From IMG/VR virus record IMGVR_UViG_3300045988_155865, positions 1-60,943 of that record: 60,943 nucleotides of DNA. One strand, 5' to 3'. The notes under the pieces were generated by a model. The model was not told the origin of the DNA. It was given only the letters and a program-made list of their open reading frames with translations, and made no database searches. The DNA is from a virus. Both the position numbers and the translations under genes were made by a program. This document shows positions 1-60,943 of this stretch, in pieces. The stretch's first letter is position 1. Every line of letters begins with the position of its first letter.

Positions 1-230
<230 letters not shown>

Positions 231-1659: not shown

Positions 1660-1693
1660 TTTTATTTCCCCTTTCCCTTAACTTCTATAACTA

Positions 1694-1721
1694 TTATAGC
1701 ATAATTCGGGATATTTGTAAA
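1694..1721 (-). promoter_or_regulatory. Early promoter, minus strand (TTTACA-17-TGCTATAAT)
   Basis: Reverse complement tttacaaatatcccgaattatgctataat. This is a member of the repeated promoter family. Confidence 0.6.
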
Positions 1722-1868
1722 TAGTCAAATTGCACAAAAAATCGTTGAGATTTTTATTGAAAATGCGAATTGACAGAAATTCCGAGCGTGCGGATGGTGC
1801 ACGCTCGGCTCAAGGTTTTAGTATCTCTAACTAAAAGGGACACTAAAATAAATTTAGTGTCCCTTTCT

Positions 1869-2108
1869 TTATTTCAATTTTATTTTTCCACTTAAATTTT
1901 TATAAATGGGGTGATAACCGCCTTCAAGCTCAGGTGTAACAATGAGAATACAGTGTCTTGTACAAAACTCTTCTAAATCTTCAAGTTTTTTATTTGCAAT
2001 TTTAAGCACTTGTTTTCTCGACACTCTTGCTCGTTCAGCTTTAATCGCTTCAATGGCAATATTTAATTCTGCTTCTGATACATCTTTTAAAATTCCTATT
2101 GAGTTCAT
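1869..2108 (-). CDS. Hypothetical small protein (79 aa)
   Basis: ORF with TAA stop, sitting 14 nt upstream of the next gene as an operon pair. Confidence 0.5.
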   Translation of the reverse strand: MNSIGILKDVSEAELNIAIEAIKAERARVSRKQVLKIANKKLEDLEEFCTRHCILIVTPELEGGYHPIYKNLSGKIKLK

Positions 2109-2122
2109 AAAAACATCTCCTT

Positions 2123-2461
2123 TTATAAAATTATTTCATATTCACGTTTGATTTTAACTACTATTTTCTTAGGTTTTTGCTTACAACAAAATCTGTCATT
2201 CCGTACATACACACCAATTTGCTCTTGTCTAAATTTTTCTTTGTTTTTATCCTCGTATCTAAAAGTATTATACTTAGATAAAGGTAAAGACCAATCATAT
2301 TCAAATTCACTGTCCTGTGGCATTGTATATTGCTTAGCTCTGCGATAATTTATTGTATGTTGTGATTTTCTGCGTTTTAAATCGCTTGTAGTACCAATTT
2401 TTAAAATATAGTTACCTTTTGTATCAGTGTAATGTCCGATGTATAAAAATTCTTTTCCCAT
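2123..2461 (-). CDS. GIY-YIG domain protein (112 aa)
   Basis: N-terminus FLYIGHYTDTKGNYILKIGTTSDLKRRKSQH matches the GIY...YIG...R...H nuclease motif. Confidence 0.6.
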   Translation of the reverse strand: MGKEFLYIGHYTDTKGNYILKIGTTSDLKRRKSQHTINYRRAKQYTMPQDSEFEYDWSLPLSKYNTFRYEDKNKEKFRQEQIGVYVRNDRFCCKQKPKKIVVKIKREYEIIL

Positions 2462-2511
2462 ATAAATTCCTCACTTTTTGAGGAATTTTGGGCGATTTCT
2501 CGCCCTTTTCC

Positions 2512-2901
2512 TCATTTTTTTGGTTTTCTTTTCTGCACAAGAGTTAATTCAAATAAATTTTCGCCTATTTTAAAAGCAATTTGACGCTCTTTATTCGTAA
2601 TTTCGCAATTTTCTATGGCATTTTTACTATTTTTTTGCAAAAAATTAGCAATTTCTGCAATTAAATTTGCTTTTATTGGATTTTCTTTGCGTTCTCTTGT
2701 TACTTTTTTACCATAAGCATTGACCGCACGAACACCGCCTTTTGCCTTTTTTATTGCCTTTTTTTGTTCCTCTGTTAAATCATTATTGACTTGTCGCATA
2801 CCCATTTTATCGACTTGCTCATCTTCTTTTATTAATTCGATAGCTTCATCTCTTGTCAAGTCAAGCGTTTTCATCAATTCGGATATTTTATTTTCATTCA
2901 T
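2512..2901 (-). CDS. Hypothetical protein, paralog A1 of duplicated cassette (129 aa)
   Basis: About 45% identical to the 4192-4572 product (MxExxIxELMxTLDLTRxEAIELxxEDExVDKM...AIKKAKGG). TGA stop. Confidence 0.6.
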   Translation of the reverse strand: MNENKISELMKTLDLTRDEAIELIKEDEQVDKMGMRQVNNDLTEEQKKAIKKAKGGVRAVNAYGKKVTRERKENPIKANLIAEIANFLQKNSKNAIENCEITNKERQIAFKIGENLFELTLVQKRKPKK

Positions 2902-2961
2902 AATATCACCTCTGTTGAATTAATGATTGAGGAGGAGGGGAGATTATTCCCTCCTCCCATA

Positions 2962-3352
2962 TCAGGCAAGTTGGAAGTATGTTACTCTCTTGTCAACAAT
3001 TCTTTTAACCTCACCTGTTCCATCTTCTTCCTTCATTGAGCGAAGAATAGCCGATACTCGTTGATTTGAGAGTGGACTGATATGAACAATCGGCTCTGCG
3101 ATTTTCGCAAGTTGAGTTGCGGTGTAGAGTTTGTTCGGATTAGCCTTCATTTCCTCAAGAATAACTGTTTTAATCTCTCTATTTTTAACTTGATTAGCCG
3201 TAGGTTTATGATTTCCACCATTCTTGCGTTCAAGCAGTTCAATTTCGTGGGTAATGAACTTAACAAAATCTTCCCTATCCGAAACTTTTCCGTCATATGC
3301 AAGCATAGCTTTGAACATATCCTTTTTTGTTACCTTCTTGTTTGTCTTTGTC
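2962..3352 (-). CDS. Hypothetical protein, paralog B1 (about 130 aa, possible winged-helix)
   Basis: Paralog of 4604-4990 (shared FIxHEIELLERKNGGNxKPTA...TATQ...DGTGEVxR...KRVTYF). Start chosen at the ATG with GAAGGAG RBS. TGA stop. Confidence 0.6.
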
Positions 3353-3402
3353 ATATAAAACAACTCCTTCAAAAAATTTTTTTGTTTTGTAATCTCTCTT
3401 GA

Positions 3403-3441
3403 TTACATATTCATTATACCATACTTTGAACAGTTTGTCAA
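3403..3441 (-). promoter_or_regulatory. Early promoter, minus strand (TTGACA-17-TGGTATAAT)
   Basis: Reverse complement ggcttgacaaactgttcaaagtatggtataat. Confidence 0.65.
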
Positions 3442-3597
3442 GCCTTTTTTAAAACTTTTTTTATTTTTTTATTATCTTGCGTCTGTTCTCTATCTCTTTG
3501 GTACATTTATATTATAGCAAATTCTTAATCATTTGTCTATTGGCATTTTGCACAAATTTCGGGACAATATTTTTTTAATCTTTGGACAACTTTTCTC

Positions 3598-3626
3598 TTG
3601 ACAAAAAGTGTGAAGTGTGATATAAT
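3598..3626 (+). promoter_or_regulatory. Perfect consensus promoter on plus strand (TTGACA-17-TATAAT), convergent with the early genes
   Basis: cttgacaaaaagtgtgaagtgtgatataat. The predicted start falls at the conserved GAAATTCCGG hairpin element. Confidence 0.55.
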
Positions 3627-3632
3627 AGAAAT

Positions 3633-3684
3633 TCCGGTTTTTGCGCGTGAAAACCGGCGGGCAAGATTTAAAATCAAGCCCGCC
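3633..3684 (+). ncRNA. Candidate small RNA: GAAATTCCGG element plus two GC hairpins
   Basis: ccggtttt-tgcgcgtg-aaaaccgg and ggcgggc-N15-gcccgcc hairpins immediately downstream of the promoter at 3598-3626. The same element family recurs 8 or more times. Confidence 0.3.
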
Positions 3685-3691
3685 GCACTCT

Positions 3692-3928
3692 TTAATCGCT
3701 AAAATGATATTCCATTATATCATTTAACTCCTCAATGTATCCTTCAATGATTTCTTCTGAGGTGGCCAAACGCACATTTTTATATTCTTCTTTGTTTCTT
3801 AGAATTTTAAGGTCTGTTTTTAGCATGCCCATAAATTCTGTTAAACTGTCCTTAATATCATTTTTAACATTTTTTATAAGTTGATTAGTGTCTTGAGCCT
3901 CATTAAGATTTGCATTATAATCTTTCAT
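3692..3928 (-). CDS. Hypothetical protein (about 78 aa)
   Basis: ORF with TAA stop. Start set at MKDYNANL with AAAGGAG RBS. Confidence 0.5.
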   Translation of the reverse strand: MKDYNANLNEAQDTNQLIKNVKNDIKDSLTEFMGMLKTDLKILRNKEEYKNVRLATSEEIIEGYIEELNDIMEYHFSD

Positions 3929-4191
3929 TTTAATTACTCCTTTTCTTTTTTCTGTAATTACATTATAGCACATTATAGGAAAAATATCAATATACAAATT
4001 GCACAAAAATTACAACAAAAATTTATATAACCTGTCTATTGGTAAAATTCCGGGCGCTACGTATGTGCGCGCCCGGCTGACCGCATTTTCCTTTGCTAAT
4101 TAAAAATACAAAATGAGGGACACTAAAAATGCTTTAGTGTCCCTCATAATAGTCTTACCCATTGGAAACTTTTAACGTCCCCTTTTGGTGC

Positions 4192-4572
4192 TTATTTACG
4201 CGGTGCAGATAATACAATACGAAATCGTCTGCCATTCATATTGAAATCAATTTGCCTTTCAGGGTTTGTAATTTCAATATTCTCACAAGCAGGATCATCT
4301 CCACGGTGTAAAGTACTATATAACAAATTGATTAAGGTTCTTTTATCTTCATCTACCTTCCGCTCAACAACTCTCTTTTTTCCGAATGCGTCAACCGCCT
4401 TAGCTCCACCTTTAGCTTTCTTTATTGCTTGTTTCTGCTCTGCGGTCAAGTCGCTTTCAGTTTCTTTTACTGTCATTTTATCAACTTTCTCATCCTCTTG
4501 GACTAATTCAATAGCTTCTTCCCTTGTAAGGTCTAATGTTTGCATTAATTCAGTAATTCTTTTTTCGTCCAT
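4192..4572 (-). CDS. Hypothetical protein, paralog A2 (126 aa)
   Basis: Paralog of 2512-2901. TAA stop. Confidence 0.6.
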   Translation of the reverse strand: MDEKRITELMQTLDLTREEAIELVQEDEKVDKMTVKETESDLTAEQKQAIKKAKGGAKAVDAFGKKRVVERKVDEDKRTLINLLYSTLHRGDDPACENIEITNPERQIDFNMNGRRFRIVLSAPRK

Positions 4573-4603
4573 TACTCAACCTCCTTGCGGAAGAGTTGAG
4601 GGA

Positions 4604-4990
4604 TTAACCCTCAACTTCAACTCCCACTTTTTTGAAATACGTTACACGCTTTTCAGTGTATCTCTCAACTTCACCTGTTCCGTCTTTGCCCAAACCACGC
4701 AATAGAGCTGAAATACGTTGAGGTGTAAGTACGATTTCAGGAAAATCAGGTTCAATAGCCTTCATAATTTGAGTTGCAGTCATAGGCTTAACAAGAGCTT
4801 TAAGAATTTTTTCTTTAATCTTCTCATTTGCCATCTGTTGAGCGGTCGGTTTACGATTACCGCCATTCTTACGCTCAAGCAACTCAATCTCATGTTCAAT
4901 GAACTTCACTAAGTCAGCACGCTCTTTTACGCAATCCATAGCAAGCAACACCTGAAACATTTCCTTCTTTGTCATTTTCTTTTCTGTCAT
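4604..4990 (-). CDS. Hypothetical protein, paralog B2 (about 128 aa)
   Basis: Paralog of 2962-3352. AAAGGAG RBS and TAA stop. Confidence 0.6.
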   Translation of the reverse strand: MTEKKMTKKEMFQVLLAMDCVKERADLVKFIEHEIELLERKNGGNRKPTAQQMANEKIKEKILKALVKPMTATQIMKAIEPDFPEIVLTPQRISALLRGLGKDGTGEVERYTEKRVTYFKKVGVEVEG

Positions 4991-5108
4991 ATTGACCAAC
5001 TCCTTTAAAAAATTTTTTATTTATTTGTAAAAGGGTTTTGGTTGATAACCCCTCAACCCTTATTACTCTTATATTATATCATTCTTTTATTTATTTGTCA
5101 AGCCTTTT

Positions 5109-5576
5109 TTAAGAATTTTTAATTAAATCTTCAAGAAAATTTATTATATCTATCTCTGTTGGATTGACCGCAATTCTGCCCTTGTCATAATCATAAAAGC
5201 TCTCTCTTACATCAGCCGAATCGTCAAACAAGATTTGAATATCGCCTTCAGTGCATTTTTGTTTTGGTGTTCCATACTGAACGAGATGTATTTCCTCAAT
5301 CGGCAGCCCTGTTTTAGCAAGCCACTCTCTTTTTGCTTTGCGTACCGCATTTTTATAAGCCTGTGTGCTATTCATAGATAACCAACTTGTAATAGCAATC
5401 GTCCAACCTAACACCGCCAACTCATTTAATACAGTAGAGAGTTTATTCATATCGACCATAGGCTCTGCTATTTCATAAGGCATTGGATTTTCGGCTCTTA
5501 ACATTTCAAGCCAACCATCAACCCCATACAAATCTGCTATTGTACCGTCCATATCAAATATCAAAACTTTTCTCAT
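5109..5576 (-). CDS. HAD-superfamily 5'(3')-deoxyribonucleotidase-like phosphatase (155 aa)
   Basis: N-terminal LIFDMDGTIAD is HAD motif I (DxDGT). Size and fold are typical of NT5C-type nucleotidases. Confidence 0.65.
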   Translation of the reverse strand: MRKVLIFDMDGTIADLYGVDGWLEMLRAENPMPYEIAEPMVDMNKLSTVLNELAVLGWTIAITSWLSMNSTQAYKNAVRKAKREWLAKTGLPIEEIHLVQYGTPKQKCTEGDIQILFDDSADVRESFYDYDKGRIAVNPTEIDIINFLEDLIKNS

Positions 5577-5610
5577 TTTTAATTACCCCTTTTCTTTATT
5601 TTCTATAATA

Positions 5611-5638
5611 ATTATACCATAATTATTATTATTTGTCA
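5611..5638 (-). promoter_or_regulatory. Early promoter, minus strand (TTGACA-17-TGGTATAAT)
   Basis: Reverse complement cttgacaaataataataattatggtataat. Confidence 0.65.
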
Positions 5639-5648
5639 AGTATTTTTT

Positions 5649-6386
5649 TTAAATTTTTAAATTTTCTTTTAATTCCAAAAGACGCTTATTAATATATTCT
5701 TTATGGTGCTCTGTTGGAATGCGCCAACACGTTTTATTAATTGACTTATTAACTTTTTTGTGTTGAGCATAACACTTTGCCATTATCTGACATTCAATCA
5801 AGACATCCTGTAAGCCTTGATGTTCTTCTGTAAACTGTGTTTCATTTGTTAAGTAGCGGAAGCCGATTTCCGCAGACGTCCGCAGATTTCCAGAAGGTGA
5901 AAAATAATCATATTGAATAGCAAATTCCGCAAATCTTTTTTGTGTGTAGAGTAGTTGACAAGCCATATTCCAAATACAATTTATTTCCATCCCATAAGGA
6001 AAAAACCAACGATACTTTGACTTAGTAACATATCGCAAAGTAGTATTCAATGCGTTTATATCAAAGAATGCATTATAGGCGCAGATAGTCTTAATGTTAT
6101 ATTTTTCTATTGTATCTTTTATTATCCATCTTGCAAGTAATAAATCAACAACTTGCGATTGATGAGTTGATATTCTCTCAAGGTACTTTGGAATTTTTTT
6201 TGAATAATATGCGGTCTTCATAAGCTCTTTTTCAAAACAAAATATATCTCTTATAATAAGGCTTTTCTGTTCATATACATTTCCTTCCTTATCTACCACG
6301 GCATAACCTATATCATATACAAGTGGATACAAGGTATCATTCGCCGTTTCAACGTCAATAACTAAAAATTTCTTTTTTCTATTCAT
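5649..6386 (-). CDS. DEDDh-family 3'-5' exonuclease (DnaQ-like fold, 245 aa)
   Basis: LVIDVETAN (Exo I, DxE), AYNAFFDINAL (Exo II) and HQGLQDVLIECQI (Exo III, H-x4-D). Confidence 0.65.
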   Translation of the reverse strand: MNRKKKFLVIDVETANDTLYPLVYDIGYAVVDKEGNVYEQKSLIIRDIFCFEKELMKTAYYSKKIPKYLERISTHQSQVVDLLLARWIIKDTIEKYNIKTICAYNAFFDINALNTTLRYVTKSKYRWFFPYGMEINCIWNMACQLLYTQKRFAEFAIQYDYFSPSGNLRTSAEIGFRYLTNETQFTEEHQGLQDVLIECQIMAKCYAQHKKVNKSINKTCWRIPTEHHKEYINKRLLELKENLKI

Positions 6387-6525
6387 TTTTAAGCTCCTCT
6401 CCTTAACTTCTATAACTATTATAGCATACCTTTAATTATTTGTCAATGCTTTTTTAAAAAAATTTTTTCATCAAGTTGTACAAAATCGGGATTTCGCATA
6501 ATTAATATTTTGTTAAAATTGTCTA

Positions 6526-6554
6526 TTGACATTTTTTGTTGGATATGTTATAAT
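6526..6554 (+). promoter_or_regulatory. Perfect consensus promoter on plus strand (TTGACA-17-TATAAT)
   Basis: tattgacattttttgttggatatgttataat. Confidence 0.55.
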
Positions 6555-6560
6555 AGAAAT

Positions 6561-6650
6561 TCGGCGCGTGACACCCCATCACGCGCCGCTCAAGCTGACT
6601 AATTAATTTCAGCAAAAGGAAAGGAGGGGCAACTGCCCCTCGCTTATTTT
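6561..6650 (+). ncRNA. Candidate small RNA (about 90 nt): GAAATTCGGC hairpin plus intrinsic terminator
   Basis: cggcgcgtga-cacccca-tcacgcgccg, then gaggggcaactgcccctc and a U-run, all downstream of the promoter at 6526-6554. Confidence 0.4.
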
Positions 6651-6653
6651 AAC

Positions 6654-7727
6654 TTAGTTATTTGCAATTTCAAGTAGTCTTGCAATCTCTTTATCAATAA
6701 TTGAAAATAGTGTTGGTGATACATTTTTTACAGGTGTATTATTTATTTCTCTTGTTTCAACTGAACACTTAAACTCAATATTGTATCTACAAGTAATATA
6801 ACTCTTAGCTGGGTTTTTCTTTTTTCTTACAAAGTAAATAAGATTTTCCCCTTTTGCTATACTATCATGGTAAAAGCTACCTACGCAGTTATTTTGTTGT
6901 ATTCCCTCATCAGCAAAAGCTTCTAAAGTATGTGGTACAACAACCTGTAAATCATCAAGGTCAAGTTTTTCAAGGTCAAATATTTTTTCTTCTTGTATAA
7001 AAATAGATTTTTCCCTTTCACGGTCTTTTATTTTGTTTAGTTGTTTAACATTATAATCAAGTCCTCTATTATCATCATAATACAGTTCAAGTGTTGGACA
7101 AGCTCTTAAAAGATAACGCAAATCATAATAATCTCTTGGTATATTATAATTTTTTAAATCTACTTTTAAACTTTTTATCAATTTTTTTTGCATTAAAGTT
7201 GTTAATTCCCAAAAGTCCTCATGAAAACAGAAATAGTTGCAAAGAAGATGTATAAGTTTTTCATTTTCCTCTTTATTGCCAGATAAGGATAAGGCTGTCT
7301 TATACTCTTTATAAAATTGAAAAGTTTTATAAGAAATTTTATAGCCATTTTCTTTTAAATATTTAATATAACCCTTATCCATTTTTATATCATAAAGACT
7401 ATTGACATAATCACCTGCTTGCCGACCTGTCAAAGCCTCTGTATCAAGTAAATCAGTGTATGAAAACCATTGTTCTAATCTTGTTAAAAGTATTTTATCA
7501 CTCATCATATAACAAAGATCTTTTGCACCCATAATCAATCCATATGCAACCTCTTTATATAAATTTATATCTGCATTTTCGGCATATCTCAAAAAATTTT
7601 TTACAAGAATTTCTTTTCCACTTACGCCAATAGCTTTTTTTGCATTAAAATCATATATTGCAGTTTTATTGTTATCAAAACCGAATATCAATAAATTCTT
7701 TTCCTTACTAATACTTGTCAACATCAT
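6654..7727 (-). CDS. PcfJ-like domain protein (357 aa)
   Basis: C-terminal EGIQQNNCVGSFYHDSIAKGENLIYFVRKK resembles the PcfJ-like signature. The family assignment is from memory. Confidence 0.4.
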   Translation of the reverse strand: MMLTSISKEKNLLIFGFDNNKTAIYDFNAKKAIGVSGKEILVKNFLRYAENADINLYKEVAYGLIMGAKDLCYMMSDKILLTRLEQWFSYTDLLDTEALTGRQAGDYVNSLYDIKMDKGYIKYLKENGYKISYKTFQFYKEYKTALSLSGNKEENEKLIHLLCNYFCFHEDFWELTTLMQKKLIKSLKVDLKNYNIPRDYYDLRYLLRACPTLELYYDDNRGLDYNVKQLNKIKDREREKSIFIQEEKIFDLEKLDLDDLQVVVPHTLEAFADEGIQQNNCVGSFYHDSIAKGENLIYFVRKKKNPAKSYITCRYNIEFKCSVETREINNTPVKNVSPTLFSIIDKEIARLLEIANN

Positions 7728-8167
7728 TTTAATTACTTCCTTTCCTCTTCCTTTGATATATCTATTATATCATACTTTGTTTTGTTTGTCAAGAGATTTT
7801 TAAAACTTTTTTTATTTTTTATAACCTATCTCTTATCCCTCTCTCATTTTCTATAATTATTATAACGCAAATAGAGAAAAAAGTCAAGAGTTTTGGGAAA
7901 TATTTTTATTGTTATTTTGCACAAGTTTTCGCTTAGATTTTTATGTAGTTTGCCTATTGACGTAAATTCGGCTCGCAGCGCCCAAGTGCGAGCCGCTGAG
8001 ATTTTATCAATTAATAATTTCGTATAAAAAAATAAGGGTAAAACCCTTATTTTTAAAAAAGTGATACAATTCTTTCTGCTATTAATGCGAGCGTATCAAT
8101 CATCATAGGCATATTTAAAATTTTTACCATAGCCATTGCCATTTTCCGCATTTTAATCACTTCCTTT

Positions 8168-8353
8168 TTAATTAAATATTATTCTTAGTAAGAAGATAAT
8201 TCCATAAATTATTAAGACCAATTTCCAAGAGAATATTGCTATTGGAATGATTAACAATACCAACCAAACCACTAAAGCAATAATACCAAATATAATTGCT
8301 TCCACGAATAACATATCCAATATTACTTTTAAAAATACTAAAAATTCAAACAT
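8168..8353 (-). CDS. Small membrane protein (about 61 aa, two predicted TM helices)
   Basis: MFEFLVFLKVILDMLFVEAIIFGIIALVVWLVLLIIPIAIFSW. AGAGG RBS. Confidence 0.5.
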   Translation of the reverse strand: MFEFLVFLKVILDMLFVEAIIFGIIALVVWLVLLIIPIAIFSWKLVLIIYGIIFLLRIIFN

Positions 8354-8423
8354 TTTAATTACCTCTTTCTTAATTTCTATATTTATTATAGCATAATTAT
8401 TATCATTTGTCAAGTGTTTTTTA

Positions 8424-8573
8424 TTAAATTGCCCAATATTTTTTTATATTATATTTATAAGTATCATCATTTTTTTCTGCCATTTGATTAATCCACTCTT
8501 GTGCTTTTTTACAGGTGGTATAAACCCCTTTAATTTCATCAGTATATACATCTATTACTATAAATACATCCAT
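8424..8573 (-). CDS. Hypothetical small protein (about 49 aa)
   Basis: ORF with GAGGAAAG RBS and upstream promoter. Confidence 0.4.
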   Translation of the reverse strand: MDVFIVIDVYTDEIKGVYTTCKKAQEWINQMAEKNDDTYKYNIKKYWAI

Positions 8574-8613
8574 TGTTCTTTCCTCACTTTCTATAATTAT
8601 TATAACATAGTTG

Positions 8614-8892
8614 TTATGATTTGTCAAGACTTTTTTTACGATTTTTCATCATATTCTCAACAAAAGCCTTTTTCCTATCTTCTGCCCCATATGGTCGATA
8701 TTTATATGAGGTATAACCTTCCGCATATAAGTCGTCTGGTGTTTTATAACGTTGTTGAGCTATCTTTGTAATTGCCTTTTTAACATATGCGGCTTGATTG
8801 GCTTTAAAATCTGCCATATTAGCAACCTCTATAACAGTAGCTACTGGACGAAACTTTTTTCCCTCGTGAAACATTGTTACTTGAATTTTCAT
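8614..8892 (-). CDS. Hypothetical protein (about 92 aa)
   Basis: ORF with AAGGAGTGG RBS and TGA stop. Confidence 0.5.
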   Translation of the reverse strand: MKIQVTMFHEGKKFRPVATVIEVANMADFKANQAAYVKKAITKIAQQRYKTPDDLYAEGYTSYKYRPYGAEDRKKAFVENMMKNRKKSLDKS

Positions 8893-9035
8893 AAAGACCA
8901 CTCCTTAAACTCTATATTGACTATTTTATTTTTTTTAACATATTTCTTTTTATAAGGTGCGCAAGGGGTTTTGCTCTCCTCATAATACTCTGCCTTTATG
9001 TTACATATTTTTGTTTCCTTATACTCTGTTTTCAT
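8889..9035 (-). CDS. Hypothetical small protein (about 48 aa)
   Basis: AAGGAGGAA RBS. Start overlaps the stop of the downstream gene (ATGA). Confidence 0.4.
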   Translation of the reverse strand: MKTEYKETKICNIKAEYYEESKTPCAPYKKKYVKKNKIVNIEFKEWSL

Positions 9036-9332
9036 TTTTAATTCCTCCTTTACTGTACTTATAGTATACCATATTTCAGGAAAACTGTCTATTGGCATTT
9101 TGCACAAATTTTGCTTTCAATTTTTATGCAATCTGCTACTTGCCAAAAGTCCGGCGCTAGCGTTGGATTTACATTACCGCTAGCGCCGGACGAACGCAAA
9201 TTAGACATAGCTGCCTATGTCTAATCTACGAATTAAGAAAGATATATTATTATAAAGGAATGAATTACCATATATAACCTACCTTATAGGATAAGGAGGG
9301 CGGGGCAGACAGATTTTTCTGCCCCATTTGTT

Positions 9333-9431
9333 AGTTATTAGCTTTCTCAAGTTCTCTGCCAGCTTTTATTGCTTGCTTGCTTTCAAGTCCATATTTATTG
9401 CAAATTTTAATAAATTTTTCATATGTCATTT
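9333..9431 (-). CDS. Tiny ORF (32 aa) behind a consensus promoter
   Basis: Promoter ttgacaaataataaaagatatgttataat, then AAGGAAAGGAAG RBS. GC hairpin at the 3' end. Confidence 0.3.
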
Positions 9432-9511
9432 TTATTACTTCCTTTCCTTAACTTCTATATATATTATAACATATCTTTTATTATTTGTCAATAGTTTTTT
9501 AAAAAATATTT

Positions 9512-9913
9512 TTATTTTAAAAATTCAACTATTTCATAATCTGTAACAATATTTTTAAAAAGTGGAGTTTCTTTGATAATTTTTTCTATTTTTACTTTTG
9601 AGTTTGCTTTTGCCTTCGCATAAGTTAATTGGTCTACTGTAAAATAATGGACATTTCCATCCGCAAATTCAACATATATATTAAATTCTTCTGAATGGTA
9701 AGTGCTTCCTATCGTTTTGCCAGGTATCCCTCTGCGATGGTTAATTGCTTTAGTATGTTCTACGTTTGTAATTTCACAAACTTCATAAGTTGTTTCTATT
9801 GGTTTACTGCATAATTTTTCAATTTGTAGAGTTGCAGATAAACATATAGTTAAAATAATTATTCCTATGAATGTATTTATAATAATATCAATAGCATTAA
9901 TTTTTCTTTTCAT
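9512..9913 (-). CDS. Secreted or membrane-anchored protein (133 aa, N-terminal signal/TM)
   Basis: MKRKINAIDIIINTFIGIIILTICLSATLQ hydrophobic N-terminus. TAA stop. Confidence 0.55.
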   Translation of the reverse strand: MKRKINAIDIIINTFIGIIILTICLSATLQIEKLCSKPIETTYEVCEITNVEHTKAINHRRGIPGKTIGSTYHSEEFNIYVEFADGNVHYFTVDQLTYAKAKANSKVKIEKIIKETPLFKNIVTDYEIVEFLK

Positions 9914-9942
9914 TTTTCATTACCTCTCTATCTTTTTTCTTA

Positions 9943-10260
9943 TTAGCAATATATTAAACCCATGTTTCTCCAACTTAATATTGAGATTTGAGCATTTGCC
10001 CTGCCAATAATAAGAGCCTGTTTCTTGGTACTCTCTCTATGTGACTTGTCTATATAGTAAATACCATTAGCAAACCAAACACCGCAATTACCATTATATG
10101 CTTTAATCGCCTTCATTGCTTTCTGTTGGTCTGTTGTTTCTATGCCTTCTGTTGCTACTTGATAACCTGTTTTATAAGTTATGATTTTACCATTCTTTAA
10201 AGTTAAACCATCATTATCTTGTAGTTTTCTTAGAGTTCTAATATTAATCATTTTTTTCAA
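9943..10260 (-). CDS. Hypothetical protein (105 aa)
   Basis: Complete ORF with upstream promoter-like element. Confidence 0.5.
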   Translation of the reverse strand: MKKMINIRTLRKLQDNDGLTLKNGKIITYKTGYQVATEGIETTDQQKAMKAIKAYNGNCGVWFANGIYYIDKSHRESTKKQALIIGRANAQISILSWRNMGLIYC

Positions 10261-10381
10261 TCCCTTCTCTTATCTTGATCACATTATATCATCTATTGCG
10301 ATATTTGTCAATAGTTTTTTAGAAAAAAAGTTGCACAAATTGGGATGCAGATTTTTGTGTAATATTTGTATAAATTTTCTC

Positions 10382-10410
10382 TTGACTTTTATGGCAAGGT
10401 GTGATATAAT
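10382..10410 (+). promoter_or_regulatory. Perfect consensus promoter on plus strand (TTGACT-17-TATAAT)
   Basis: ttgacttttatggcaaggtgtgatataat. Confidence 0.55.
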
Positions 10411-10416
10411 ATTTCG

Positions 10417-10473
10417 AGCTGTCTCGATTCTTGCGGGCGCAAGAAAAAAAAGAGTGCTTTTACACTCTTTTTT
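10417..10473 (+). ncRNA. Candidate small RNA (about 60 nt) ending in an intrinsic terminator
   Basis: atttcgagctgtctcg..gcgggcgcaag, then aaaagagtgcttttacactctttttt (hairpin plus U-run). Confidence 0.4.
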
Positions 10474-10696
10474 CCCTCCATAAAGTACGAATTAAAGCTT
10501 CAATCTCTTCGATTATTGACTTAGCTTCTTCTTCTATCATCCTTTTACTCTCTATTGAAATATTGTTAACGTATTCAAAAATGATAACACAATCTTTTTC
10601 ATCATTATAAAAATCTAACTTATTATAATAAACTCTTATTAACTGTTCATTTATTATAAACAAATCATTTTTAATTTTTATAGGATAAATTTCCAT
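10460..10696 (-). CDS. Hypothetical protein (about 78 aa)
   Basis: ORF with GGAAAGAGG RBS. Bidirectional terminator at its 3' end. Confidence 0.45.
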   Translation of the reverse strand: MEIYPIKIKNDLFIINEQLIRVYYNKLDFYNDEKDCVIIFEYVNNISIESKRMIEEEAKSIIEEIEALIRTLWREKRV

Positions 10697-10715
10697 TTTT
10701 ATCAACCTCTTTCCT

Positions 10716-10831
10716 TAAAATGGGCAAGTAACAATTCTCATTGTAATTTCCTCACCAAGCATTTCCCAAACCTCGGCAATAAGTTTATGAAATGTAAATT
10801 CACCTGTGTTTTTATTGATATACATAATCAT
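10716..10831 (-). CDS. Tiny ORF (about 38 aa)
   Basis: AAGGAGGAAT RBS with ATG. Low confidence because of its small size. Confidence 0.25.
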
Positions 10832-10871
10832 TTTAATTCCTCCTTTATTTGTTGTTATTCTTATATCCCTG

Positions 10872-11033
10872 TTAAGCAGGGATATAAGAAACTAACTTAC
10901 CACGTTTTTGTTCTTCTCTTTTTAGCTCTGCGGCACTCAATCCATAAACCCAGCCTTGTGAGCCGTCCGCATATTCATAATAAAAACCTCTACCTTTGTT
11001 ATTTCCTTTAGTCCATACCTTCATTTTAATTAC
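10872..11033 (-). CDS. Small protein (about 53 aa)
   Basis: Promoter ttgacaaaacgcagagagtatgctataat, then AAGAGGTAAT RBS. Confidence 0.35.
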   Translation of the reverse strand, partial: VIKMKVWTKGNNKGRGFYYEYADGSQGWVYGLSAAELKREEQKRGKLVSYIPA

Positions 11034-11104
11034 CTCTTTTCTTAATTTCTATATTTATTATAGCATACTCTCTGCGTTTTGTCAAGCCTTTTTTTAAAAT
11101 TTTT

Positions 11105-11347
11105 TTAAAAAACTTTTAAAATTATTAAGGCAAGTGTTATTGCAAAGAATGTAATATCTTTTGTTTTATCTGCGATAGGTCTTTTTAAAACAAATTGTCT
11201 TGCAACTCCGATTCCATTTGCTACAAGATATAAACACTGAGCAAAGATATAAAAATAACCGACAGTAATTTGACCAATAATGCACAACACAAGATTGATA
11301 TATCCTATCCATTCCCAAGCTTTTGTATTATTCATAATAATCCCCAA
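11105..11347 (-). CDS. Small membrane protein (80 aa)
   Basis: Multiple hydrophobic segments (WEWIGYINLVLCIIGQITVGYFYIFAQCLYLVANGIGV...). Confidence 0.5.
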   Translation of the reverse strand: MGIIMNNTKAWEWIGYINLVLCIIGQITVGYFYIFAQCLYLVANGIGVARQFVLKRPIADKTKDITFFAITLALIILKVF

Positions 11348-11489
11348 ACCCTTCTGTAATAAATTCTTTTCCTTTATCTTGATTACATTATATCATAACT
11401 ACTACACTTTGTCAATGACAGAATAGTAACAATTACATTACAGCTGTGTTACAAATTGTTATTTTTTTAACAATCTTTCTACCACAATC

Positions 11490-11521
11490 TTACAAAAAGA
11501 ACAGGCTTTTAAGCCTGTTCT
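11490..11521 (-). terminator. Rho-independent terminator
   Basis: agaacaggc-tttta-agcctgttct, with a T-run following on the minus strand. Confidence 0.55.
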
Positions 11522-11542
11522 TAGATAAGAAGGAAAAAACAA

Positions 11543-11701
11543 TTATTTTGTTATTAGCTTAGTCATTAAATTAAAATTAGAATACTGTGGATTCTCATGA
11601 GTGTTCTTTGCAAGTATTTCACCATAGCAACACACAAGATATACAATAATTAACAGTACTGCAATATTAGACAACCCTTTTCTTACGTTCCACTTAGCCA
11701 T
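11543..11701 (-). CDS. Small membrane protein (52 aa)
   Basis: MAKWNVRKGLSNIAVLLIIVYLVCCYGEIL... Preceded by the promoter at 11736-11764 and an AGAGG RBS. Confidence 0.45.
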   Translation of the reverse strand: MAKWNVRKGLSNIAVLLIIVYLVCCYGEILAKNTHENPQYSNFNLMTKLITK

Positions 11702-11735
11702 TCCTCTGCACCTCTTTCCTCTTGACTACATACTC

Positions 11736-11764
11736 ATTATACCATAGATTAGCATTGCTGTCAA
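11736..11764 (-). promoter_or_regulatory. Early promoter, minus strand (TTGACA-17-TGGTATAAT)
   Basis: Reverse complement ttgacagcaatgctaatctatggtataat. Confidence 0.6.
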
Positions 11765-11835
11765 TGACAGATTGGTTACAGTTATATTACAATTGTGTTA
11801 CATTACTCTTTGTGCATGTTGCACAAACGACTAGA

Positions 11836-11961
11836 GTTAGCCTTAGCTAACTAGAGTCAGTATAGTTAGCTTAGACTAACAGGTGTCAGATATTGGGAAT
11901 AGCAGTTAGTATAGGCTAACCCGAGTTGCCGGTGTAAAATTTTGGTTAGACCCTACTAACC
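11836..11961. promoter_or_regulatory. Array of four inverted repeats GTTAG(C)-N4-7-(G)CTAAC (candidate operator or origin iterons)
   Basis: gttagccttagctaac (11836-11851), gttagcttagactaac (11865-11880), gttagtataggctaac (11905-11920), ggttagaccctactaacc (11944-11961). Confidence 0.5.
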
Positions 11962-12140
11962 AAAAATTCGGTGCGCTACAGTCGCAACCGCACCGCTGAA
12001 TCGAAATATATATTTTGGGATTGCTTGTCTTATGAAACGTGCCGATTAAGTACAAAGATTTTTTGTGTTAGAGCATACGGTCGGAAATTCGGAGCACTAC
12101 GCTGATAACTATAATTATCGGTAGTAACTCTTTTAGCGCA

Positions 12141-12302
12141 TTAGTTCACTTTATTATCTTTCTCTGATGATAATAAATCTAATGGCTTAGTACACTTACA
12201 TAGATCCTTTGCTTCACATTCTGCACAATTGCAGCCTTCGTGATAAGCGCATACGTCTATCAGTGTGTCGATGGCTTCCTTTACCTGCTCTGCATAAGTC
12301 AC
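12141..12302 (-). CDS. Cys-rich small protein (53 aa, GTG start)
   Basis: MTYAEQVKEAIDTLIDVCAYHEGCNCAECEAKDLCKCTKPL. AGGAGG RBS. Confidence 0.4.
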   Translation of the reverse strand: MTYAEQVKEAIDTLIDVCAYHEGCNCAECEAKDLCKCTKPLDLLSSEKDNKVN

Positions 12303-58613: not shown

Positions 58614-58929
58614 TATGAATGGATATAGGTGGGAAGTAATAATTACTTCCCCATCTCATCCATGTCTTAGACGTTCTAATGGCTCATATGCACTTGGCTC
58701 TTGTGACAATAATTGCAAAACAATATATTTAAATGAATTTATTCCTACTGATAAATTACTAAAAGTTTTATGCCATGAGATTACACATGCGGCAATGTTT
58801 AGTTATAATGTAAATTTAAACTTAGATTAGGAAGAACTAATTGCAGATTTAATAGCTACGTATGGAAAAGAAATAACATCGACCGCAGATAAAATTTTTA
58901 AAAAAATATCAAAAAAATGGGGTGCTTAA
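58606..58929 (+). CDS. Small HExxH zinc-metallopeptidase-motif protein (about 107 aa); one TAG
   Basis: VLCHEITHAAMF (HExxH). Overlaps the upstream stop. TAA inside the terminator stem. Confidence 0.35.
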
Positions 58930-58946
58930 TGCACCCCGATTTTTTT
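58919..58946. terminator. Bidirectional intrinsic terminator
   Basis: ggggtgc-ttaa-tgcacccc flanked by A7 and T7 runs. Confidence 0.7.
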
Positions 58947-59403
58947 ATAGGTTATTATGGTATTTTATTTGAACATCTTCATATAATCTATCTCCATCGT
59001 GATTTCCTCCCAATGAATTATATGTGTCATGCTCTGAACTAATCATATCCCATTCTTTTGAAGTAATTTCATGATCTTCTTTTAATAACTTATGACAATC
59101 AGTCTTAAAACTTTTTCCTTGAATACAAAGGATACCATCTCTTAAAATGTCTAAATCAGTTTCTAAACAATTTATTTGTTTCTGAAGATGTTCATTTCTT
59201 CGCTAAGATTGTTGCTTATGGTCTTGAATTATATCTAAAACTTCTTGATTAATAGAATCTTTTAGAGTATCATCTTCTTCTTGTCTAATATGTTCCTATT
59301 CTTTTTTATATAAGCTATAAAATTTTTTTGCTAAAAAGCCAGTTCCAGTAGCAATTAAACCAAAGATAATTTCAAGCCAGTATTGAACGATAAAAGTTAT
59401 CAT
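58945..59403 (-). CDS. Membrane protein with N-terminal TM helix and coiled-coil (about 152 aa); two in-frame TAG
   Basis: GGGAGGTTGAAT RBS. MITFIVQYWLEIIFGLIATGTGFLA, then K-rich coiled coil. Could be a lysis or regulatory membrane protein. Confidence 0.4.
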
Positions 59404-59475
59404 AATTCAACCTCCCAACTTATACTGTCAATATCTTTAATTTTAGAGAGGTTAATATTATTTAAAATCGCCCAG

Positions 59476-59952
59476 TTAATCCCAGTTAAAATCTTCTTGT
59501 AATTGAGATTTATAAGTACCTATACAAATAGCATCACTTTCATCTTGAGAAACTTTTAAACCATATTTGTTTTCAACAAATTTTTGCGCGTTTCGTTTTT
59601 GTTCCTCTCGACGAGCTCCTTTTATACTAAGCTTTGATTTCCATACTGCCGCAAGCACTGCAGAATTTGGTATATTACGCTCTTCTAATACTTCATTTAA
59701 TACCCCAAAAACTTCTGCTAAAGCTTTAAAAGTAGTTACATTACCACCTTGCATTTGGATATCTTCAAAAATAACTTCATCTATATTGTAGTCTTCAATT
59801 AATTGTAGAACTTTATTTCTTATTTTTACTAATCGTTGTCCTATGTTAGAATCTGTAAAAGTAAAAATTCCACTTTCTACAAGACCCCCATCTTCAAAGA
59901 CAGCCCAACCTGAAGTCCTTGAACTCTAGTCTAATGCCAGAAGATTAGCCAT
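59476..59952 (-). CDS. RuvC-like Holliday-junction resolvase (about 158 aa); one in-frame TAG
   Basis: MANLLALD-TAG-SSRTSGWAVF (RuvC motif I-like) and C-terminal DESDAICIGTY (catalytic Asp motif). Confidence 0.55.
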
Positions 59953-60793: not shown

Positions 60794-60943
60794 ATAATAA
60801 CATTCCTTTCTTTTATTTTTCTCTATTGTATATAAAAATACAATTAATAAAATAAAAGAAAAATGTCCTTACTACCAAAAATTTTTTATTTGGAAGTACT
60901 ACCGAGTCCGCCTTCTCTAACAGCTGTAGATTCATCTCCATCT

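Follow-up and report, generated by a model that had tools for sequence, protein, structure and literature searches.

The promoter-early stem-loop (PeSL) cassettes of T4-type phages, whose stem-loops serve in termination or attenuation (Arbiol et al., 2010, PMC2839356; PMC4122927), are by analogy the closest counterpart of the elements described here. In both cases an intergenic cassette of about 100 bp, composed of a consensus host-type early promoter and a stable GC-rich stem-loop, is repeated, flanks small early genes of mostly unknown function in a variable region, and coincides with mosaic breakpoints between related phages. The elements here differ in belonging to another lineage with another host (a Firmicute phage with TAG as sense codon), in lacking sequence homology to PeSLs, and in having a fixed length of 27 nt, an invariant AAATT flank, a conserved skeleton and an operator-like palindrome in the cassette. 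In many copies, moreover, opposite-strand or two-sided promoters are placed to start exactly at the hairpin, which is undescribed for PeSLs.

Other systems share single traits with these elements. Bidirectional intrinsic (Rho-independent) terminators are likewise GC-rich stem-loops between convergent transcription units, with A in the 5' and U in the 3' flank, and four of the hairpins here are picked out by a terminator consensus scan; however, the length and flanks are fixed here, and the tail is GAAUUU with conserved A residues rather than a U-run, that of the plus strand (CYNA) not being U-rich in the window. REP/BIME elements, to which protection of mRNA 3' ends and termination are attributed, are also GC-rich palindromes that recur in extragenic DNA downstream of genes and carry a short conserved flank on the 5' side. 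Unlike these, the present elements belong to a phage and not to a chromosome, have AAATT instead of GTAG as flank and are tied to promoters, and no RAYT-type transposase turned up when the early proteins were searched. Firmicute mRNAs are reportedly stabilised by a stem-loop a few nucleotides from the 5' end (ermC, aprE and SP82 studies). Promoter-bearing copies resemble such leaders, including that of ompA, in that transcription would start 0–2 nt before a stem of −10 to −21 kcal/mol, but each of those is the leader of one particular mRNA, whereas here a two-strand palindrome is repeated, often without a promoter. Finally, 3'-overlapping antisense RNAs (the type I toxin-antitoxin systems yonT/SR6 and bsrG/SR4 of SPbeta, lambda oop RNA) are short RNAs driven by a strong promoter that converges on a phage gene, and they end, as the RNAs predicted here would, at a terminator beside the stop codon of that gene; according to PMC5848175, SR6 is a 100-nt antisense RNA of the related SPbeta prophage. 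The genes faced here are not small hydrophobic toxins, the overlap with the mRNA may comprise terminator sequence only, and there are many copies per genome, most without a promoter.

The stretch of DNA analysed (the window, 60,943 nt) is the early region, transcribed by the host RNA polymerase, of a large uncultured gut phage of a Firmicute, with phAss-1 and SPbeta-like phages as kin and with TAG used as a sense codon in its late genes. Its relevant features are given below, bits referring to a covariance model trained on 34 members of the family and T1 to the terminator between a gene and the hairpin.

1777–1812, plus: e1771, AAATT, 27-nt hairpin 1782–1808 (10-bp stem) and CTCA; 47.6 bits; no strong promoter adjoins, and TTGCACAA lies 47 nt upstream (1730).
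1834–1866, both strands: bidirectional terminator T1 of gene 1869–2108, 26 nt right of e1771.
3598–3626, plus: rightward promoter TTGACA-17-TGaTATAAT, ending 7 nt before the hairpin at 3634.
3629–3657, plus: e3633, AAATT and 24-nt hairpin 3634–3657 (CCGGTTTT/AAAACCGG); 19.4 bits, outside the training set; minus strand scored terminator-like, with tail AATTTCTATT.
3655–3685, unstranded: hairpin T1, adjoining the stop codon of gene 3692–3928 and overlapping the foot of e3633.
4045–4080, plus: e4049, TGgTAAAAT-T, 27-nt hairpin 4050–4076 and CTGA; 45.7 bits; stem kept in relatives L006 and L007 and in 11 IMG/VR contigs.
4113–4147, minus: terminator T1 of gene 4192–4572, competent on the minus strand only.
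6526–6554, plus: rightward promoter TTGACA-17-TGtTATAAT, ending 7 nt before the hairpin at 6562.
6557–6592, plus: e6561, AAATT, 27-nt hairpin 6562–6588 and CTCA; 50.2 bits; minus strand terminator-like.
6624–6641, both strands: bidirectional terminator T1 after gene 6654–7727 (PcfJ-like).
7964–7999, plus: e7967, AAATT, 27-nt hairpin 7969–7995 and CTGA; 48.6 bits.
8001–8028, minus: weak leftward promoter-like site TTTATA-16-TGaTAAAAT, ending 5 nt from hairpin 7969–7995; the only site in the window that corresponds to the type C promoters found in relatives.
8025–8056, both strands: bidirectional terminator T1 (A-run, AAGGG/CCCTT stem, T-run).
9146–9191, plus: e9150, AAAGT and 43-nt hairpin 9149–9191, followed on the minus strand by TTTTGG; covariation in the stem and a conserved loop across L001, L006 and L007.
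9302–9325, plus: terminator 110 nt to the right of e9150, competent on this strand only.
10382–10410, plus: rightward promoter TTGACT-17-TGaTATAAT, ending 3 nt before the hairpin.
10411–10473, plus: doubtful member (site 10417), ATT, 5-bp hairpin 10414–10427, second hairpin 10428–10445 and bidirectional terminator 10446–10473.
11964–11999, plus: e11975, AAATT, 27-nt hairpin 11969–11995 (7-bp stem) and CTGA; 38.6 bits; four GTTAG-N6-CTAAC palindromes ahead.
12085–12131, plus: variant e12090, AAATTCGG and a long imperfect AT-rich hairpin (z −1.8), 10 nt past the stop codon of gene 12141–12302; near-identical in L006.
1730–10361, unstranded: operator-like motif TTGCACAA(A)-N13/14-TTTRTG(CA/TA), present once in each cassette (1730, 3548, 3999, 6476, 7917, 9100, 10331).

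A preliminary description of this DNA had listed nine intergenic sites with a conserved motif and a GC-rich stem of 8–13 bp differing in sequence at each. Seven of these (1771, 3633, 4049, 6561, 7967, 9150 and 11975) indeed carry AAATT(C) or AAAGT and such a stem; site 10417 is not a motif member because it has ATTTCGAG and a 5-bp stem, and 12090 has the motif but an imperfect, AT-rich stem. When the DNA was scanned without bias for perfect stems rich in GC, five hairpins of exactly 27 nt (1782–1808, 4050–4076, 6562–6588, 7969–7995, 11969–11995) and two of other lengths (3634–3657, 24 nt; 9149–9191, 43 nt, with AAAGT instead of AAATT) were found, and all seven come straight after the motif. 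Their stems are 7–14 bp, a wider range than described, and the loops 7–15 nt; the stem sequences do vary by site, yet have the skeleton C-S-G-N-N-C-G in common, and the total of 27 nt is constant regardless of how it is split between stem and loop. The string AAATTCSG occurs 11 times in the window versus 4.2 ± 2.0 expected (0 of 100 shuffles reach 11), eight copies lying on the plus strand within 1.7–12.1 kb, whereas a looser 9-mer with one mismatch allowed is not enriched in the window (16 versus 11.7). The covariance model gives 38–50 bits for the five 27-nt window sites, which were in its training set, and 19 bits (E 0.04) for 3620–3671, which was not; no other site in the rest of the 61 kb is under E 0.8. 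The hairpin element has no match in Rfam.

The elements have a fixed position and orientation relative to genes and promoters, being constantly downstream of leftward gene ends. Read leftward, the order at a junction is gene end, T1, stem-loop with GAAUUU (invariant on the coding, minus strand after AAATT-flank hairpins), operator-like palindrome TTGCACAAA..TTTGTGCAA, consensus early promoter and next gene. The start of the operator-like motif precedes AAATT by 46–47 nt in the short form and by 81 nt in the promoter-bearing form; in L006 and phAss-1 the motif is a perfect palindrome. Promoter cassettes of about 90 bp recur, genes and cassettes are duplicated within the early region, and mosaic breakpoints coincide with cassettes, one exactly at 3636. 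Of the three rightward promoters described earlier as perfect, those at 3598 and 6526 match the consensus at 12 of 12 positions, with TGn, and that at 10382 at 11 of 12. They do lie directly ahead of the hairpins, as had been stated, and are the only strong plus-strand promoters in 12.6 kb, versus about 17 on the minus strand. The terminators said to follow were found as hairpins with T-runs 0–37 nt past each GC-rich hairpin, with 9150 (110 nt) as the exception, and the predicted plus-strand RNAs are 64–105 nt long. Predicted folds of the units show a 5' hairpin, a linker and the terminator (z −2.6 to −8.4).

The family recurs in many IMG/VR phage contigs of 100–400 kb with 32–47% GC, extends to phages whose proteins are only about 60% identical, and was not found in any cultured relative. 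Hairpins are retained with compensatory stem changes; for example, a 96.5%-identical relative shows two fully compensatory double changes, and orthologous sites carry different stems. Among 34 members 86.8% of cells are paired, versus 66.0 ± 1.7% after shuffling and 27–42% in slid controls, and 68 cells hold double changes versus 29 ± 3.6 (0 of 500 shuffles). The base pairing of the hairpin is under selection. When members are chosen by their flanks alone, the pairing distribution is bimodal, and 21 of 32 flank-bearing hairpins are 27 nt long against a flat background. In IMG/VR contigs two consensus promoters that face each other often bracket the 27-nt palindrome: of 44 distinct hairpins, 17 have one on the AAATT side, 10 of them with another on the opposite side, and four have one on the gene-direction side only, at gaps of only 7 or 8 nt (AAATT side) and 2–4 nt (other side), and 23 have no adjacent strong promoter. 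Promoter-less copies in relatives have the minus-strand tail AAUUU[U/G] and a plus-strand tail that is not U-rich.

The GC-rich hairpins, mostly of 27 bases with a fixed AAATT flank, that border the early genes are most likely transcription stop or insulator signals. The fuller model, which we favour although we rate it at slightly less than an even chance, is that they form the stem-loop component of a repeated junction cassette in the early region, which host sigma-A RNA polymerase transcribes. On the coding strand, stem-loop and U-containing tail would act as second terminator, insulator and 3'-end protector, and the conserved AAATTC would be the complement of that tail. Four hairpins were scored terminator-like on the minus strand (6588–6562, 1808–1782, 3657–3634, 10427–10414), and at 9150 and 12090, where it is the first and only minus-strand candidate after the gene, the stem-loop may be the sole terminator. 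In a subset (three of nine window sites, 17 of 44 in the wider family) an opposite-strand consensus promoter 7–8 nt from the stem (3 nt at 10382) would lengthen the U-rich tail, its −10 box read in reverse being AUUAUA, and would give a convergent RNA that begins at the hairpin foot, carries a protective 5'-terminal stem-loop, ends at T1, and may act by antisense pairing or transcriptional interference. The idea that the elements belong to the leftward mRNAs, mentioned earlier as an alternative, is at least as well supported for the whole family, judging from the position after genes, GAAUUU and the four terminator-like hairpins. It should be noted that several points speak against a terminator role. 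A competent T1 already lies between gene and hairpin at seven of nine sites, mismatch types carry no strand signal (17 G.T versus 18 A.C), and in 24 of the 34 members the plus strand folds with slightly greater stability. Stem and U-run are separated by two near-invariant A residues, which is less than ideal for intrinsic termination and suggests a sequence-specific constraint, and in relatives a leftward type C promoter lies between T1 and hairpin, so that the hairpin would start rather than end the leftward transcript.

The small or antisense plus-strand RNAs first proposed fit the three promoter-start copies and the same 7–8 nt spacing in distant relatives, but leave the majority (six of nine window sites and 23 of the 44 distinct family members) unexplained. 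As a reading of the whole family, namely RNAs running from AAAUU and the hairpin to T1, with the hairpin as 5' stabiliser or recognition feature, it is possible but unlikely. Such RNAs could act in cis on the 3' ends of convergent early mRNAs or in trans, and promoter-less copies could use weak or activator-dependent promoters, AAATT/TAAAAT resembling a −10 box with an operator half-site near −35; indeed, TGgTAAAAT of e4049 sits 1 nt from the stem. Plus-competent terminators also lie past promoter-less units (1834–1866, 8025–8056, 9302–9325), the steadier plus-strand fold points the same way, and SR6 is a precedent in a related lineage. Against this, a recognisable plus-strand promoter is missing from most copies and is evolutionarily labile where the hairpin persists (the 6561 orthologues in L006 and L007 have lost it and kept hairpin and AAATT), linkers are poorly conserved among orthologues, Rfam has no match, the genes faced do not encode small hydrophobic toxins, and if mRNAs end at T1 the overlap would shrink to terminator sequence.

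It is less probable still that the palindrome is a device located where flanking promoters, whichever way they point, begin transcription, by which plus-side RNAs starting at the hairpin foot would keep the full hairpin and be stable, and gene-direction RNAs starting 3–5 nt inside the stem would lack it and therefore escape a terminator that halts read-through from upstream. The two-sided and gene-direction promoters of relatives with their unequal gaps, the 5' stabilisation described above and the weak site 8001–8028 are in its favour; however, only four of nine window sites have any adjacent promoter, compensatory change maintains the hairpin at promoter-less sites such as 9150, and the start sites are deduced from spacing. 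A role in DNA, with the GC palindrome between AT-rich flanks extruding as cruciform or single-strand hairpin to serve as protein-binding or recombination site, module-shuffling hot spot or N4-like promoter for a phage RNA polymerase, seems improbable. Mismatches without strand bias, the constant 27 bp, the invariant skeleton positions, the breakpoints at cassettes and the RuvC-like and GIY-YIG proteins encoded at 59.5–60.8 kb would agree with it. N4 promoters, however, have a 5–7 bp stem and 3-nt loop, unlike those here, and the window yielded no identifiable phage RNA polymerase; short GC-rich palindromes extrude poorly, strict complementarity at variable stem positions favours pairing over dimer binding, and the asymmetric flanks (AAATT versus CYNA) with fixed gene-relative orientation indicate transcription. 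That these are ordinary intrinsic terminators alike through recent duplication is very improbable: AAATT-CCGG...CCGG-AATTT hairpins are generic terminators in many unrelated bacteria, and gene and cassette are duplicated here, but the conservation across distant contigs, the 27-nt length and the exact promoter spacing argue against it.

The arrangement elaborates on a type of regulatory cassette already familiar from phages. If the boundary model with its coding-strand insulator is right, the outcome would be that separately promoted, operator-controlled early units of the phage stay independent of each other.

The hairpin feature of the early region is genuine and reaches far beyond the window. 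The motif AAATTCSG is present in 11 copies against 4.2 expected (0 of 100 shuffles reach 11), and eight of these copies lie on the plus strand in the first 12.1 kb. Only this 8-mer is enriched; the 9-mer AAATTCCGG with one mismatch allowed is not. A scan for GC-rich perfect stems, independent of the motif, finds seven hairpins immediately 3' of it.

Hairpins in the window found by the perfect-stem scan
1782-1808, plus strand, 27-nt hairpin
3634-3657, plus strand, 24-nt hairpin
4050-4076, plus strand, 27-nt hairpin
6562-6588, plus strand, 27-nt hairpin
7969-7995, plus strand, 27-nt hairpin
9149-9191, plus strand, 43-nt hairpin with flank AAAGT
11969-11995, plus strand, 27-nt hairpin

The preliminary description had counted at least nine sites of AAATTC(C)GG plus a GC-rich stem of 8-13 bp that differs at each site. 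Seven of them hold as hairpins directly after the motif, but site 10417 (ATTTCGAG and a 5-bp stem) is outside the motif family, and at site 12090, the first hairpin past gene 12141-12302, the motif is present with an imperfect, AT-rich stem. The stem sequences do vary, on a shared skeleton, but the stems measure 7-14 bp; the loops are variable and of 7-15 nt. A covariance model of the family recovers from the 61 kb the five 27-nt sites, all of which were in its training set, and 3620-3671, which was not (19 bits), with no further match. Rfam gives 0 matches at gathering score over the whole window.

The G+C content of the window is 30%. In the first 12.3 kb about 25 small genes run leftward and use the standard code; nearly all have a consensus TTGACA-17-TGnTATAAT promoter ahead of them, and few of the early proteins match Pfam or PHROGs families of known function. 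From 13 kb on, the rightward genes make sense only if TAG does not stop translation: with the standard code, ORFs of 150 aa or more span 7.5 kb, and with TAG as a sense codon 42 kb. Late genes that need TAG as sense occupy 12,900-59,000 (plus strand) and 58,900-60,800 (minus strand), an example being MS*VQFLRG at 13353; TAG in them is probably read as Gln. In-frame TAG is absent from the 12-kb early region. No tRNA genes were found in the window, which therefore has no suppressor tRNA; an unannotated tRNA-like sequence with the 3' end GGTTCGACTCCCGTACACTCCACCA is seen on the minus strand of phAss-1 (129,230-129,330), adjoining an operator cluster.

A portal and a capsid protein are encoded among the TAG-reading rightward genes, and the closest capsid relatives are from phAss-1 (50%), Enterococcus EF1-like and SPbeta-like phages. 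The 136-kb phAss-1, a gut phage, belongs to the "code 15 clade" and is presumed to infect Clostridia (PMC10607447). The strong AGGAGG-type ribosome sites and the sigma-A promoters are consistent with a Firmicute host, and the elements therefore lie in an early region that the host polymerase transcribes, in a large uncultured phage. One relative, L001, is 96.5% identical and is on a 155.7-kb IMG/VR contig (sample IMG 3300045988, from which many of the relatives come). The window also has large ORFs of 2883 and 2033 aa, and Pfam searches with six other late ORFs gave GIY-YIG and RuvC only. The genes for the RuvC-like resolvase (59476-59952, minus strand) and the GIY-YIG/NUMOD endonuclease (59945-60793, minus strand) are at the right end and contain in-frame TAG codons. 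At the other end (1-200) there are long low-complexity tracts, (AT)n and (CA)n/(TACA)n, probably where the assembly stops; in L001 the sequence goes on beyond this point. Positions 300-600 are non-coding and higher in G+C than their surroundings, with a strong minus-strand terminator (595-564); a consensus leftward promoter (967-995) lies upstream, and no sizeable ORF separates it from them. This stretch, conserved at 90% in L001 and in the more distant L007 and matching nothing in Rfam, may be a structured non-coding RNA.

The hairpin belongs to a larger repeated cassette, in which an operator-like sequence stands at a fixed distance from the AAATT flank.

Operator-like TTGCACAA in the window
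1730, 3999, 7917 and 9100, short promoter-less forms, starting 46-47 nt upstream of AAATT
3548, 6476 and 10331, long promoter-bearing forms, starting 81 nt upstream of AAATT

Together with a downstream TTTRTG(CA), TTGCACAA forms an inverted repeat, whose perfect version TTGCACAAA-N12-14-TTTGTGCAA is found in the relative L006 and in phAss-1. The repeat resembles an operator, placed between the promoter of the leftward gene and the hairpin unit. It often has a central TTCGGGA and is located directly upstream of the -35 box of leftward early promoters; in phAss-1 several such repeats are clustered in one intergenic region (L005 28905-28945). In the short forms CTATTGAC, the extended -35 consensus of the window's phage promoters, immediately precedes AAATT. 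After the hairpin comes C-Y-N-A, and further right T1, the ordinary terminator of the upstream leftward gene. The leftward promoters themselves (e.g., 1693-1721, 6418-6446, 8385-8413, 11057-11085) consist of an A-run, CTATTGACA, 17 nt, TGnTATAAT, AGTTATAGAAGTTAAGG and the start codon, and the leftward promoter cassette of about 90 bp is present in at least five copies in L006 and L007 (blastn).

A second type of palindrome, GTTAG-N6-CTAAC, is found four times in tandem between the early and late regions, directly upstream of e11975, the hairpin unit at site 11975 (11836-11851, 11865-11880, 11905-11920, 11945-11960), and also at 536-551. The orthologues of e6561 in L006 and L007 have such palindromes in place of the plus-strand promoter. 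They resemble operators for a second regulator that binds DNA. Gene-replacement breakpoints between the window and L001 or L006 fall at the cassettes (window 1683, 3636, and ~6465). A two-gene module is duplicated (2512-3354 versus 4192-4990), with a hairpin cassette beside each copy and an amino-acid identity of 53-55% in both gene pairs.

Within the window about 17 leftward and three rightward promoters match the consensus at 11-12 of 12 positions, most with TGn. On the plus strand strong promoters are found, over 12.6 kb, only at 3598, 6526 and 10382, ending 7 nt (3598, 6526) or 3 nt (10382) before the hairpin. They had been described as perfect promoters with a family element exactly downstream; they are strong and near the stems, but their match is 11-12 of 12 and site 10417 behind 10382 is not a motif member. 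The intrinsic terminators reported to follow them, hairpins with a T-run, are present at all three, giving predicted plus-strand RNAs of 64-105 nt. Fold predictions, proposed earlier as a check, yield a 5' hairpin, a linker and a terminator (z -2.6 to -8.4). At these three sites a convergent promoter with its own terminator lies downstream of the gene that it faces.

In several relatives (L101, L097, L019, L020, L023, L066) the 27-nt palindrome is situated between two consensus promoters that face each other.

Promoters flanking the hairpin in relatives
Type A, on the AAATT side, TTGACA-17-TGnTATAAT, then 7-8 nt to the hairpin
Type C, on the gene-direction side, TTGACA-17-TGnTAAAAT, then 2-4 nt to the hairpin

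No strong promoter adjoins 23 of the 44 distinct family hairpins; seven have type A only, four type C only, and ten both. The type A gap is always 7 nt (12 cases) or 8 nt (five cases), and that of type C 2 nt (seven), 3 nt (five) or 4 nt (two). The window has three promoters of type A and a single weak type C-like site (8001-8028). Transcription usually starts about 7 nt past the -10 hexamer; by this rule type A RNAs would start 0-2 nt ahead of the stem and include the hairpin in full, and type C RNAs would start 3-5 nt within the stem. The e6561 orthologues in L006 and L007 keep the hairpin without the promoter, which indicates that promoter presence is labile and the hairpin is not.

Conservation in related genomes, whose lack was to refute the first proposal, and covariation, proposed earlier as a check, are borne out. 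In L001 the unit e9150 differs by two fully compensatory double substitutions, GGCGCTAGCG/CGCTAGCGCC to GGTGCTGGCG/CGCCAGCACC. Orthologous elements are present in L006 (Logan SRR15558221; 81% identity in a neighbouring protein) and L007 (61%); their stems differ, the AAATT flank is unchanged and the length is 26-29 nt (39 nt for the 9150 type). AAATT hairpins are absent from L009 (58% protein identity; Logan SRR29026055), which has a repeat of its own, a terminator followed by TTTACTTGTCTA, at most early-gene junctions. Scanning IMG/VR with the stem of e4049 gave 11 loci on contigs of 44-402 kb with 38-47% G+C, and a second scan more loci. Of 32 GC-rich hairpins with an AAATT-like flank in the fetched loci, 21 are exactly 27 nt long, and the lengths of unflanked hairpins are flat. 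When sequences are selected by the flanks only (A[AT]TT, 27 nt, CYNA), outer pairing is bimodal, with a background peak at 2/8 and a second peak at 8/8.

In an alignment of 34 distinct members, 86.8% of the cells are paired versus 66.0 ± 1.7 after shuffling; it should be noted that this percentage is inflated by a set partly chosen for having the hairpin, a bias absent from the flank-only selection and the orthologue comparisons. Changes on both sides are seen at 8 of 10 pairs, double-change cells number 68 versus 29.2 ± 3.6 (0 of 500 shuffles), and pairing falls to 27-42% when the partner is slid in the alignment. Three (nearly) invariant stem positions give the skeleton C-S-G-N-N-C-G and the remaining positions covary around it; selection therefore acts on base pairing, and not on a duplex palindrome as the recognition site of a dimer. 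That the palindrome is a DNA-level element is improbable.

Neither the region nor a relative's cassette had a relevant match among 50,697 deposited phages (megablast and blastn); the element is covered by no cultured phage, and hence by no published transcriptome. The hairpin family was not found in the whole phAss-1 genome, with which the TTGCACAAA..TTTGTGCAA palindrome is shared; promoters and repeats are not treated in the phAss-1 paper (PMC10607447). A protein-based search for IMG/VR loci found a single close relative, a metagenome scan four loci, three of them too distant, and a scan with the pattern TATAATNNAAATTCSGG mainly chance matches, about ten of the returned loci being family members. 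One genome-collection scan was dominated by generic AAATTCCGG...CCGGAATTT terminators of unrelated bacteria; family-like members were seen only on short contigs binned with Clostridia and Acutalibacteraceae MAGs, which point weakly to a host there.

The fold energies do not single out a strand: for the 34 members the mean is -17.2 kcal/mol on the plus and -16.9 on the minus strand, the plus strand being more stable in 24, and wobble-type mismatches on the plus strand number 17 G.T versus 18 A.C (an earlier count was noisier). The flanks differ between the two sides and keep a fixed orientation to the genes. On its coding strand, the minus strand in the window, every member has the stem followed by (G)AAUUU. 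With such a stable GC-rich stem-loop on either strand (mean -17 kcal/mol) the units resemble intrinsic terminators, but in place of the U-run the minus-strand tail in the window is GAAUUU(C/A/U) (TTTTGG after the e9150 stem, UUUUGG in RNA) and the plus-strand tail is CYNA, which is not U-rich; several relatives have CCAUUUUA. A simple terminator rule is passed on the minus strand at four sites, aided by the reversed -10 box, AAUUUCUAUUAUA. T1, read from its hairpin tail, is leftward-competent at 6 of 7 sites, three of which a consensus scan flags on the minus strand; near e9150 the hairpin 9302-9325 is plus-strand-competent only. That the family consists of ordinary look-alike terminators is highly improbable.

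[quoted passage not shown] The window elements are a variant of such promoter/stem-loop boundary cassettes, an analogue of PeSLs but not members of the PeSL family, to which they are unrelated in lineage and in sequence. Both have a repeated intergenic motif with a consensus sigma-70-type early promoter, a stable stem-loop in the same cassette (in the window 46-47 or 81 nt from the operator motif) and variable ORFan early genes, with gene gain and loss bounded by the cassettes; in the window gene replacements break at the cassettes and a two-gene module is duplicated. Unlike PeSLs, the window family has no T4-type context (the capsid relatives being phAss-1, EF1-like and SPbeta-like) and no DNA match to deposited phages; it has a fixed 27-nt palindrome, an invariant flank, an operator within the cassette, and promoters, opposite-strand or double, whose predicted starts lie at the hairpin. 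For the window hairpins termination is predicted from minus-strand flags of the consensus scan.

The three promoter-bearing units are similar in layout to yonT/SR6 of SPbeta, which is described in PMC5848175 as a type I toxin-antitoxin system with a 100-nt 3'-overlapping antisense RNA. However, the genes faced by 6526 (357 aa, PcfJ-like) and 10382 (78 aa) have no hydrophobic segment; on the strength of these two, neither of them a small hydrophobic toxin gene, a type I toxin-antitoxin system is rejected. The third gene faced is the following.

3692-3928, minus strand, 78-aa gene faced by the 3598 promoter

A membrane-like product is encoded, among the genes assessed, only by 8168-8353, near the promoter-less e7967. 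Other known elements each miss a defining feature. Hairpin promoters for the N4-type virion RNA polymerase have a 5-7 bp stem and a 3-nt loop with conserved purines, and are ruled out by stems of 7-14 bp and variable loops of 7-15 nt. REP/BIME elements have a conserved GTAG 5' flank and a cognate RAYT transposase; here the flank is AAATT and no RAYT transposase domain is found among 20 early proteins. A CRISPR-repeat mimic is ruled out by stems that differ among copies, and nut/put-type antitermination by unconserved loops.

We prefer, at somewhat less than even confidence, to regard the hairpin as a dual-use boundary stem-loop. On the coding strand it would be a second terminator, insulator and 3' protector, the sole one at two sites, halting read-through into the next operator-controlled early unit; AAATTC would be the complement of the coding-strand terminator tail. 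In type A copies the palindrome would at the same time be the 5'-terminal stem-loop of a short convergent RNA ending at T1, and the type A -10 box would lengthen the U-rich tail on the opposite strand. Three points count against a terminator role and support rival readings: a conserved AA, suboptimal for termination, stands between stem and U-run; most hairpins are already preceded by T1; and in relatives the type C promoter lies between T1 and hairpin. A genuine small-RNA family, as first proposed, is rather unlikely: it is a plausible reading of one copy in three but fails for the family taken together, 23 of 44 hairpins being without a strong promoter. A shared 5' stem-loop that is at the same time a terminator-bypass device would suit the type C placement and shares the difficulty of the promoter-less copies; we consider it quite unlikely.

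A bolder proposal, which we hold to be unlikely, is that the 27-nt palindrome between face-to-face promoters is a dedicated device of a large uncultured Firmicute phage clade (100-400 kb contigs), giving rise, on one strand or on both, to abundant hairpin-capped RNAs, tiny or short, and acting as a start-site-embedded terminator, obeyed by read-through polymerases and bypassed by the promoter inside the palindrome. If this is true, the operator-controlled unit would govern early-gene expression as a compact bidirectional switch or timer, or else be a source of decoy RNA; to our knowledge no such switch, timer or decoy-RNA source has been described before. A start-site-embedded terminator would also be a compact design principle for synthetic biology and give insight into how densely packed strong phage promoters are insulated.

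In large uncultured gut phages hardly anything of the early region is annotated, and for one such region the analysis gives a readable grammar of promoter, operator, hairpin and terminator. The searchable signature, AAATT + C-S-G-N-N-C-G...27 nt...+ CYNA, frequently preceded by TATAAT at 7-8 nt, recurs in many 100-400 kb IMG/VR contigs, and may serve to delimit early transcription units, predict small convergent RNAs and locate likely recombination joints in this phage clade.
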